Origin: a virus
Lineage: Duplodnaviria; Heunggongvirae; Uroviricota; Caudoviricetes
IMG/VR virus record: IMGVR_UViG_2778261544_000010
Span: 1-32,649 of that record
DNA length: 32,649 nucleotides
Direction: 5' to 3' (one strand)
The notes under the pieces are model-generated. The model was given only the letters and a program-made list of their open reading frames with translations. It had not been told where the DNA came from and did not search any database. The position numbers and the translations under genes were made by a program. This document shows, in pieces, positions 28,697-30,690 of this stretch (the first letter of the stretch is position 1; each line of letters opens with the position of its first letter).

Positions 28697-29373
28697 CACC
28701 GGACATTATCCTGCAGCGTACCGGGATCGACGTGAGAGCTGTCGAACAGGGGGATGATGCATGGCACAAATTACGGCTCGGCGTCATCACCGCTTCAGAA
28801 GTTCACAACGTGATAGCAAAGCCCCGCTCAGGAAAGAAGTGGCCTGACATGAAAATGTCCTACTTCCACACCCTGCTGGCTGAGGTTTGCACCGGTGTGG
28901 CTCCGGAAGTTAATGCTAAGGCGCTGGCATGGGGAAAACAGTACGAGAACGACGCCAGAACTCTGTTTGAATTCACTTCCGGCGTGAATGTTACTGAATC
29001 CCCGATCATCTATCGCGACGAAAGTATGCGCACCGCCTGCTCTCCCGATGGTTTATGCAGTGACGGCAATGGCCTTGAGCTGAAATGCCCGTTTACCTCC
29101 CGGGATTTCATGAAGTTCCGGCTCGGTGGTTTCGAGGCCATAAAGTCGGCTTACATGGCCCAGGTGCAGTACAGCATGTGGGTGACACGAAAAGATGCCT
29201 GGTACTTTGCCAACTATGACCCGCGTATGAAGCGTGAAGGACTGCATTATGTCGTGGTTGAGCGGGATGAAAAGTACATGGCGAGTTTTGACGAGATGGT
29301 GCCGGAGTTCATCGAAAAAATGGACGAGGCACTGGCTGAAATTGGTTTTGTATTTGGGGAGCAATGGCGATGA
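28693..29373 (+). CDS. exo: Exo (Red-alpha 5'-3' exonuclease)
   Basis: 226 aa [40 protein letters not shown]... is essentially identical to lambda Exo. Its ATG overlaps the bet stop. Confidence 0.95.
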
Positions 29374-29528
29374 CGCATCCTCACGATAATATCCGGGTAG
29401 GCGCGATCACTTTCGTCTACTCCATTACAAAGCGAGGCTGGGTATTTCCCGGCCTTTCTGTTATCAGAAATCCACTGAAAGCACAGCGGCTGGCTGAGAA
29501 GATAAATAATAAACAGGAGGATATATGA
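29370..29528 (+). CDS. Small coupled ORF (52 aa) between exo and the DGQHR gene
   Basis: I translated it by hand: [56 protein letters not shown] overlaps at both ends (exo stop and DGQHR start). Not in the ORF track (under 60 aa). Confidence 0.4.
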
Positions 29529-30589
29529 GTCAGGTTGGTAATCATTCATTCGAATTTCCGGCATCGCAAGGTGTACAGGGTGGTACTGTTACACTCTTCC
29601 TTACCATACCAGGAAGATCGCTGGCTCGTTTCCTCGCTTCAGATAATTACGGCCATACACTGGAACGCTCTCAGCGAGAAATTAATCCAAATCGAGTACG
29701 AAAATTTTTAAATTATCTCACTAACGCAGACTCAAGAAATGAGCCTTTTATCATTCCCCCTCTCGTAGGTAACTGTGATTCGAATATAGAATTTGTACCG
29801 TTTGGCAACACAAATGTTGGTATAGCCAGAATTCCCCTCGACGCCGAAATAAAACTTTTTGATGGTCAACATCGTGCAGCTGGCATTGAGATATTTTGCC
29901 GAAGTTCCCCATCAACGCTCATGGTTCCCATGATGCTTACAATGAATCTGCCGCTAAAAACCCGGCAGCAGTTCTTTTCGGACATAAATAACAACGTTTC
30001 TAAGCCATCAGCGACCATCAATATGGCGTATAACGGCCGGGATGATATTGCTCAGGGAATGATATCCTTCCTGACCCAACATACTGTATTTGCCGATATA
30101 ACCGATTTTGAACACAACGTAGTGCCATTAAAAAGTAATATGTGGGTGAGTTTCAAGGCACTCACTGATGCAACGTCAAAGTTCGCCAGGAACGGCAATC
30201 AACAACTTGAAATGGGATATATAGAATCTGTCTGGGAGGCATGGATTACACTAACTCAGATTGACTCAATCCGACATGGTGTACACCACGCTACGTACAA
30301 GCGCGATTATATTCAGTTCCATGGAGTAATGATTAACGCTTTCGGTTTTGCGGTTCAACAGATGATGGTTAATCATTCCATCGCAGAAATAACTTCTATG
30401 ATCGAAAAACTATGTGCAACTACCAGCTCTGCAGAAAGAGAGGATTTTTTTCTGATGGATAACTGGGCGGGGATCTGCACGAAAGCCAGCCAGGAAAAAC
30501 TATCTGTTATTGCCAATGTGGCAGCGCAGAAAGCAGCAGCAAACAGACTGATACAAGCTTTTACCAAAGGAAGTCTGGAATCAACTTAA
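29525..30589 (+). CDS. DGQHR-domain protein (DndB-like)
   Basis: 354 aa containing the literal motif FDGQHRAAGIE. Strong RBS AGGAGG. Occupies the variable ea/b2-type slot between exo and xis. Confidence 0.75.
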   Translation: MSQVGNHSFEFPASQGVQGGTVTLFLTIPGRSLARFLASDNYGHTLERSQREINPNRVRKFLNYLTNADSRNEPFIIPPLVGNCDSNIEFVPFGNTNVGIARIPLDAEIKLFDGQHRAAGIEIFCRSSPSTLMVPMMLTMNLPLKTRQQFFSDINNNVSKPSATINMAYNGRDDIAQGMISFLTQHTVFADITDFEHNVVPLKSNMWVSFKALTDATSKFARNGNQQLEMGYIESVWEAWITLTQIDSIRHGVHHATYKRDYIQFHGVMINAFGFAVQQMMVNHSIAEITSMIEKLCATTSSAEREDFFLMDNWAGICTKASQEKLSVIANVAAQKAAANRLIQAFTKGSLEST

Positions 30590-30666
30590 TGAATCAACAT
30601 TGTCTCATATCAGCATGCTGTACGGCGTCTTTAAGGAACGGTGAGCATGAAAAACAAAATCATCAT

Positions 30667-30690
30667 GGAGCTACAGGCTCCTTTTTTATT
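30667..30690 (+). terminator. Putative intrinsic terminator after the DGQHR gene
   Basis: GGAGC-TACAG-GCTCC followed by TTTTTT. Short 5-bp stem. Confidence 0.4.

Follow-up and report, generated by a model that had tools for sequence, protein, structure and literature searches.

DndB (DptB; family TIGR03233), the product of the first gene of dndBCDE operons, is a DNA-binding repressor that needs Cys29 for DNA binding and recognizes the operator TACGN10CGTA (PMC4507180). Functional dnd islands occur in Escherichia coli (PMC6408774), and a DndB-like protein has been reported to bind both ATP and GTP in vitro (PMC12704722). The present analysis concerns a gene of the same superfamily that is carried by a lambda-like E. 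coli prophage, IMG/VR record IMGVR_UViG_2778261544_000010, of which positions 1 to 32,649 were analysed; this whole stretch is called the window. The gene is an open reading frame (ORF) of 354 amino acids (aa) on the plus strand (29525-30589), and its product carries a DGQHR domain. It is almost certain that this product is a stand-alone DGQHR/ParB-fold protein from a clade confined to mobile elements, and not DndB. More tentatively, and at a probability of roughly 40%, it may be an establishment factor that is gated by nucleoside triphosphates (NTPs), associated with DNA and tied to DNA modification or anti-restriction.

Further points of comparison are provided by ParB-fold proteins. Fusions of a ParB fold to a methyltransferase are common in prophages (PMC12704722, PMC5512222), and HerB (YfjB) of plasmid F is a ParB-like, CTP-binding protein of the leading region that promotes establishment by binding to the host chromosome (PMC13370423). 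Anti-defence genes and methyltransferases are over-represented in leading regions (PMC11541004), and the genes of the phage exo-xis region are among the earliest to be transcribed after infection (PMC4195576, PMC10869804).

Family, fold and relation to DndB

The original prediction had assigned the 354-aa product to the DndB-like family from its literal DGQHR motif, and this assignment was borne out by profile scores far beyond chance. The protein scored 188.8 bits on TIGR03187 (DGQHR; cut-off 58.85) and 158.2 bits on the Pfam family DndB, PF14072 (cut-off 29.1; E-value 3.8e-46). On the DndB equivalog model TIGR03233 it reached only 106.9 bits, a third of the cut-off of 328, whereas the positive control, a DndB from a Ruegeria plasmid on which its gene adjoins dndC, dndD and dndE, scored 413 bits. 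The DGQHR and DndB models were the only NCBIfam models to match, the DndB model was the sole match in PADLOC, and DndB was the only Pfam family, with no Pfam match to ParBc, to HTH_ParB or to a nuclease domain (HNH/DUF1524). Likewise, no Pfam, PHROG or PDB match indicated a likeness to ArdA, ArdB/KlcA, Ocr or Ral. In PHROGs the protein was placed in phrog_7901, a group of unknown function, and the name already in use for it in RefSeq is 'DGQHR domain-containing protein'.

Three short motifs, all encoded on the plus strand, contain residues that are invariant out to a true DndB. The segment R48-S-Q-R-E52 (29666-29680) corresponds to the 'QR' motif described for DGQHR domains (PMC4619093), with R48, Q50 and R51 invariant. 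The signature D113-G-Q-H-R117 (29861-29875) is invariant throughout and lies at the start of a helix (residues 115-127), at the position of the phosphate-binding motif of ParB/sulfiredoxin (Srx) domains, and the 'FxxxN' motif, F150-F-S-D-I-N-N-N157 (29972-29995), contains the invariant residues F151, D153 and N155. The invariance of these residues argues that the nucleotide-binding pocket is intact. With 32 homologues as input, AlphaFold2 gave a model (mean predicted local distance difference test score, pLDDT, 79.9) that predicts a ParB/Srx fold of the nucleotide-binding type for the N-terminal domain, approximately residues 8-160, together with a helical C-terminal half for which no clear structural match was obtained. 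The structural matches include KorB and, more distantly, SspE, BrxU and DndI, while a structure search of BFVD returned only remote viral proteins resembling DndB or GmrS, at low template-modelling scores (TM-scores).

The relationship with the phosphorothioation systems was then considered. The protein shares with DndB the DGQHR domain, the QR, DGQHR and FxxxN motifs, its length and a collinear architecture; dndB lies 5' of dndCDE, and many relatives of the present gene likewise lie directly 5' of a gene for a DNA-modifying enzyme. It differs from DndB in its score on the equivalog model, in the lack of Cys29, in the absence of nearby dndCDE or dndFGH and in its independence from dnd genes. 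Identity to E. coli DndB was 23%, collinear over ~300 residues, and identity to true DndB proteins overall was 23-25%; the equivalent of Cys29 is Ile28. The operator TACGN10CGTA has no match in the window, although this is weak evidence, as only 0.19 matches would be expected by chance. As had been predicted, dnd partners of the DGQHR gene are missing from the window: neither dnd genes nor methyltransferases were found, on the basis of the annotation of the closely related prophage of strain KOr019 and of Pfam searches of the parts that differ from it rather than a profile scan of every ORF. A tblastn search and a motif scan of the window also gave no methyltransferase. In addition, no dnd gene stood beside any relative examined.

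A survey of 5426 complete E. coli genomes was made with a dndC query from the E. coli dnd island of PMC6408774. The dndC gene was present in 207 genomes and the DNA segment carrying the DGQHR gene (the cassette, described below) in 284, with either one in 481; the two shared 10 genomes, where independence would predict 10.8. Dependence on a Dnd-positive host was rejected on these counts. Taken on its sequence, the protein is neither DndB nor part of a phosphorothioation system, and the earlier linking of the gene to phosphorothioation was not upheld. The label 'DNA sulfur modification protein DndB' is misleading for these phage and plasmid genes; plasmid genes of Vibrio cholerae and Pseudomonas aeruginosa that are labelled 'DndB' also stand alone and fall under the TIGR03233 cut-off. 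A separate observation concerns the dnd island of NADC 6564 (locus L099, 8108-9268), where the interval from dndE to dptH holds two more ORFs annotated as DGQHR/DndB, oriented opposite to dndBCDE.

Several other ParB-related systems were compared with the 354-aa protein. The type IV and phosphorothioate-sensing enzymes GmrSD, SspE, BrxU and DndI have DUF262/GmrS domains, which in the GmrSD, SspE and BrxU type are fused to or paired with a DUF1524 or HNH nuclease; the present protein matches Pfam DndB and not DUF262, and has neither a nuclease domain nor a nuclease neighbour, the adjacent genes being of the DUF1317 and TraR-like families. A canonical ParB would have ParBc and helix-turn-helix (HTH) domains, a ParA partner and parS sites, but ParBc and HTH_ParB were not matched and there is no parA in the window. 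In Dpd systems, DpdB is a DGQHR/ParB-like ATPase that accompanies the DpdA transglycosylase; no tgt-like gene is annotated in the KOr019 prophage, although the DpdA profile itself was not searched. HerB resembles the protein in being an orphan ParB-fold protein without a ParA partner that is encoded in the first-expressed region of a mobile element, and the plasmid homologues of the DGQHR protein are placed similarly to HerB. It differs in being a canonical ParB-type CTPase of 652 aa with an HTH and a large dimerization domain, as against 354 aa, the DGQHR branch and no recognizable HTH. Given this length and the missing HTH match, membership in the four-domain HerB class (CTPase, HTH, D3, D4) is unlikely and the resemblance would be functional and positional only.

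Genomic settings of the gene and its relatives

The window is 96-99% identical over most of its length to the prophage of strain KOr019, which occupies the DLP12/tRNA-Arg site, and the stretch 29300-30750 is 100% identical between the two. All genes of the early-left operon discussed here are on the plus strand. The operon includes gam (27609-27905), bet (27911-28696) and exo (28693-29373), the last encoding lambda exonuclease (YqaJ domain, 105 bits; 97% identity to lambda DNA). The exo gene is the first of a coupled chain: its stop codon shares an ATGA (29370-29373) with the start of a 52-aa ORF (29370-29528), the stop of which shares a second ATGA (29525-29528) with the start of the DGQHR gene. 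Both overlaps had been predicted and both are present in the sequence. The 52-aa ORF had been regarded as a linker, but it proved to be a conserved homologue of lambda orf60a (DUF1317; PF07026, 107 bits; phrog_1998). A 54-aa version of it, starting at 29364, was also in the ORF list.

Comparison with lambda showed that the DGQHR gene is part of a non-lambda cassette (29515-30608, plus strand), comprising a ribosome-binding site, the gene and ~20 bp, in place of lambda orf63 and orf61. Homology to lambda was 97% across 27527-29527 and returned at 95% from 30609, so that a cassette of ~1.1 kb stands in for the 446 bp of lambda DNA in which orf63 and orf61 are located. The ATG of the DGQHR gene takes the exact place of the orf63 ATG, and the junctions at both gene borders are clean. 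The ribosome-binding site, AGGAGG (29515-29520), lies 4 nt 5' of this ATG and is unlike that of lambda orf63. In an alignment with lambda orf60a, the 52-aa product was found to have been cut from 60 aa at the cassette junction, with its terminal residues swapped. The GC content of the cassette was 41-44%, compared with 51-54% for the Red genes. The ATGA coupling was considered as a special feature and rejected, as the exo/orf60a overlap is present in lambda itself and the second overlap arises at the junction, where lambda orf63 starts.

No sigma-70-like promoter was seen directly 5' of the DGQHR gene on the plus strand. Together with the orf63 slot in the exo-xis region and the ATGA coupling, this makes it a sound inference that the gene would be made early alongside the Red genes, as had been proposed. 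The gene shares its position, its early operon, its non-essential character and its exchange by recombination at the borders with the lambda exo-xis accessory genes (orf60a, orf63, orf61, orf73 and ea22). Its product, in contrast, is unrelated to theirs and far larger, and its family extends beyond lambdoid phages.

The cassette was at least 99% identical in all 284 of the 5426 E. coli genomes that carry it, with a query coverage of at least 80% in 282. Among 28 IMG/VR loci, 16 alleles were distinguished, with 17 synonymous and 5 non-synonymous variable sites. This synonymous excess runs counter to the pattern expected from neutral drift, and the lone gene is under purifying selection. In the IMG/VR loci (L016, L018, L031 and L040 versus L020-L037), the gene that follows the same cassette (at least 99% identity) is either TraR-like (+154) or Ea22-like (+372), and these two downstream settings indicate that it occupies several lambdoid backgrounds and chromosomal sites. 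A further copy was encountered on a 5.5-kb contig of a 'Bacillota bacterium' metagenome-assembled genome (JAEWTL010000063.1; L100), where the DGQHR protein is 100%, the DUF1317 protein 98% and the integrase 74% identical to those of the window; the contig is probably a lambdoid prophage fragment that entered this assembly as binning contamination.

Homologues were sought among 1.84 billion cluster representatives, giving 586 proteins at an E-value of 1e-3 or below and 42 at 1e-30 or below. The close family is enterobacterial (52-73% identity, ~355 aa). The DGQHR gene was always found in the early-left operon, between the recombination genes and int; this held for Salmonella phage SPN1S and related phages, for prophages of Klebsiella and for one from Serratia. 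Among 56 diverged IMG/VR phage loci, not of the E. coli type, 18 had a diverged DUF1317 gene (48-65% identity) directly 5' of the DGQHR gene, and 41 had a DNA methyltransferase gene 3' of it on the same strand. The methyltransferase gene started 3 nt before the DGQHR stop codon, with a 4-nt overlap being frequent, or at +464 to +523 bp. The enzymes in the 41 loci belonged to three unrelated families, MT-A70 (two subtypes), Dam (PF05869) and N6_N4_Mtase, and a more distant Vibrio phage carries a C5 cytosine methylase, from a fourth family, at the same place. Ten longer DGQHR homologues included no fusion to a methyltransferase or nuclease and a single MutS-I fusion.

This arrangement recalls the ParB-fold-methyltransferase fusions surveyed in PMC12704722, for example Bce_0392 of Bacillus cereus, which also combine a ParB/Srx nucleotide module with an orphan methyltransferase and belong to the early or accessory parts of temperate phage genomes. 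The DGQHR relatives differ from them in having adjacent but separate genes, often with the 4-nt overlap, and in belonging to the DGQHR branch, and the window itself is without a methyltransferase. In 18 loci (e.g. L053, L059, L061 and L074) a Cys-rich ORF of 154 aa lies between the DGQHR gene and the methyltransferase gene, at ~+3 to +464 after the DGQHR stop. It has no match in Pfam or NCBIfam and may be a third member of a DGQHR-methyltransferase module. Two Klebsiella prophages (L003, 5088-7077; L014, 6216-8077) have an HTH_ParB/Spo0J-like gene 5' of the DGQHR gene. The two genes overlap by 4 nt in L014 and are separated by a 44-aa ORF in L003, and in both prophages the tandem ParB-fold genes are followed by a DUF550 (dATP/dGTP pyrophosphohydrolase-like) gene.

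On plasmids, a homologue was present in 1062 PLSDB records, mostly at 37-46% identity, and 880 of these records were conjugative. In an IncL/M plasmid the DGQHR gene is accompanied, all in one orientation, by genes for RadC/JAB, Hha, an antirestriction protein and ssb, ~7 kb from mobC/mobA; DUF4942, encoded two genes 3' of the DGQHR gene on IncL/M plasmids, gave no informative match. Two Salmonella plasmids carry closer homologues (53-56% identity) near genes for a relaxase, RadC, SprT, H-NS and topoisomerase III. In the examples examined, the plasmid homologues are thus near the origin of transfer (oriT) or the relaxase gene, in what appear from their content to be leading-region-like gene sets.

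Possible roles of the DGQHR protein

The preferred interpretation, held here at the probability given above, is that the protein helps an incoming element to establish itself. It would be expressed from pL along with Gam, Bet and Exo immediately upon infection or induction, would bind a nucleotide through the pocket formed by the QR, DGQHR and FxxxN motifs, and would associate with DNA. The most plausible route by which it could aid establishment is cooperation with, or control of, DNA-modifying enzymes, such that the DNA of the element evades restriction. In most relatives the partner enzyme would be the methyltransferase encoded alongside; for the present prophage the enzyme would need to come from the host or from some other locus. 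A partnership at the level of protein or DNA is favoured over control of a promoter, given the swapping of methyltransferase families, the 4-nt overlaps and the existence of ParB-fold-methyltransferase fusions. DndB-like autoregulation at its own promoter is unlikely for a gene embedded among overlapping genes, which leave no space for an operator and so speak against DndB-style promoter control. The original prediction had suggested an anti-restriction factor. Its Dnd grounds fell away, but the suggestion stands as a reasonable guess by another route, through the methyltransferase neighbours and the leading-region position.

A number of observations weigh against this interpretation. In a set with one genome per species a methyltransferase was present in only 4 of 11 loci, and the IMG/VR loci are redundant. 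No methyltransferase was found in the window, in the E. coli type (28 loci) or in the Klebsiella type, so the link to this enzyme is facultative, and it may be that the adjacency only reflects the gathering of accessory genes in the distal part of the operon. In the C-terminal half of the protein, neither an HTH nor any other domain for DNA binding was recognized. On the 63.5-kb IncL plasmids of the pOXA-48 type (PLSDB H101-H116) the homologue is interrupted by the insertion sequence IS1, and is hence dispensable in that lineage, although it is intact in other IncL/M plasmids. Finally, searches of the literature on DGQHR/DndB-like proteins gave no work on a member that stands alone in a phage or plasmid, and no experiment on this clade exists.

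A more specific proposal, though an unlikely one, is that such proteins form a new anti-restriction class of 'modification accelerator', in which ParB-fold switches load on incoming DNA and recruit or activate any available methyltransferase. The partner would be the product of the adjacent gene or the host Dam, Dcm or type I methylase, and methylation would outpace restriction. Such an activity would account for the association with unrelated methyltransferase families as well as for the selection on lone copies, and lambda Ral is loosely comparable to it in outcome.

Other roles were weighed against the favoured establishment factor. It is somewhat unlikely that the protein is a ParB-like reprogramming factor, that is, an NTP-gated DNA clamp or regulator that alters host or phage expression at establishment and has no part in restriction or modification. 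The ParB/Srx fold with its structural match to KorB would suit such a factor, there are precedents in DndB as a DNA-binding repressor of its own operon (PMC4507180) and in HerB, which binds the chromosome and rewires transcription (PMC13370423), and the gene acts alone, under selection, and has plasmid homologues within leading-region-like gene sets. Against it, neither an HTH nor a Pfam ParBc or HTH_ParB match was seen, the cassette is without non-coding DNA able to hold a loading site, and the unrelated methyltransferase families so often found 3' of the gene would be left unexplained. The exclusion determinant proposed in the original prediction fits less well with a gene that is coupled to the lytic early operon and has no promoter-like site 5' of it, and that should therefore be silent in the lysogen. 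In this case the protein would be an NTP-regulated ParB/Srx nuclease or nickase directed against competing phages or plasmids, as is Osa, or the sensing half of a GmrSD-type system. The non-specific DNase or nicking activity of Osa, GmrS and a ParB-methylase (PMC5512222), the distant structural matches to SspE, BrxU and DndI and the frequency of defences among prophage accessory genes all speak for this, but the protein is without an HNH or DUF1524 effector domain and the plasmid contexts resemble leading regions, which published surveys found to be rich in anti-defence genes (PMC11541004); such a role is distinctly unlikely. Also quite improbable is the Dnd-directed role of the original prediction, in which the protein would imitate DndB in repressing host dndBCDE or would disturb DndFGH restriction. 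Membership in the DndB superfamily with collinearity over ~300 residues, the exclusive PADLOC match to DndB and the functional dnd islands of E. coli (PMC6408774) have to be set against the equivalog score so far below that of true DndB, the low identity to E. coli DndB with Ile in place of Cys29, the missing operator, the co-occurrence with dndC at chance and the pairing of relatives with methyltransferases, never with dnd genes; moreover, repression of dndCDE would leave the phage open to DndFGH.

Two further explanations start from the cassette itself. A modulator of lysis and lysogeny, tuning the developmental decision or induction in the manner of the replaced orf63 and orf61, would fit the exact slot of these genes and the influence of exo-xis genes on lysogenization and induction (PMC6213356, PMC3824215). 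It is nevertheless very unlikely, as the protein has no similarity to orf63 or orf61 and a lambda-specific role would make no sense on conjugative plasmids and in unrelated phages such as the Uetakevirus SPN1S, where the family also occurs. That the gene is a passenger without a present function, the remnant of a DGQHR-methyltransferase module from which the methyltransferase has disappeared, is hardly credible: the enzyme present in most diverged relatives is indeed absent here, but the coverage of at least 80% in 282 of the 284 genomes, the synonymous excess and the clean junctions at both borders are all contrary to decay.

If the establishment factor is the correct reading, the gene represents an unstudied and widespread accessory function that helps mobile DNA to establish. 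About 5% of complete E. coli genomes carry the cassette, and relatives were found in numerous enterobacterial prophages and in over 1000 plasmid records, including the IncL/M backbone of the pOXA-48-type resistance plasmids. It would also widen the repertoire of ParB-fold nucleotide switches and hint at a general role for DndB-like proteins beside DNA-modifying enzymes. By its position, the gene ties the early operons of phages to plasmid leading regions and to DNA methyltransferases, and it should be easy to test experimentally.

Other features of the prophage

Beyond the cassette, a terminator-like hairpin followed by a T-run is present on the plus strand at 30667-30690; it lies within lambda-homologous DNA and hence outside the cassette. 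The next gene of the exo-xis region encodes a TraR/DksA-type zinc-finger protein (30743-30961, plus strand; PF01258; phrog_54), which scored 54.4 bits on TIGR02419, under the cut-off of 59.7. It is followed on the same strand by a DUF4222 gene and then by a xis-like HTH ORF (31229-31630). The operon ends with int, which encodes the integrase (31486-32649, plus strand) and marks the end of the prophage by tRNA-Arg. The xis-like ORF overlaps the start of int by ~145 nt, and its KOr019 counterpart is annotated as a partial pseudogene, which makes the excision competence of the prophage uncertain.

Elsewhere in the window, a cargo block (15947-22380) is unlike the KOr019 prophage, which has ybcK-ybcL-ybcM-emrE there. 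The block contains a Bro-N/P22-antirepressor-like gene (15947-16555, minus strand), a BD-FAE/esterase gene (17389-18432, plus strand) and a gene for an inverse autotransporter of the intimin/invasin-like type with 1303 aa (18469-22380, minus strand).

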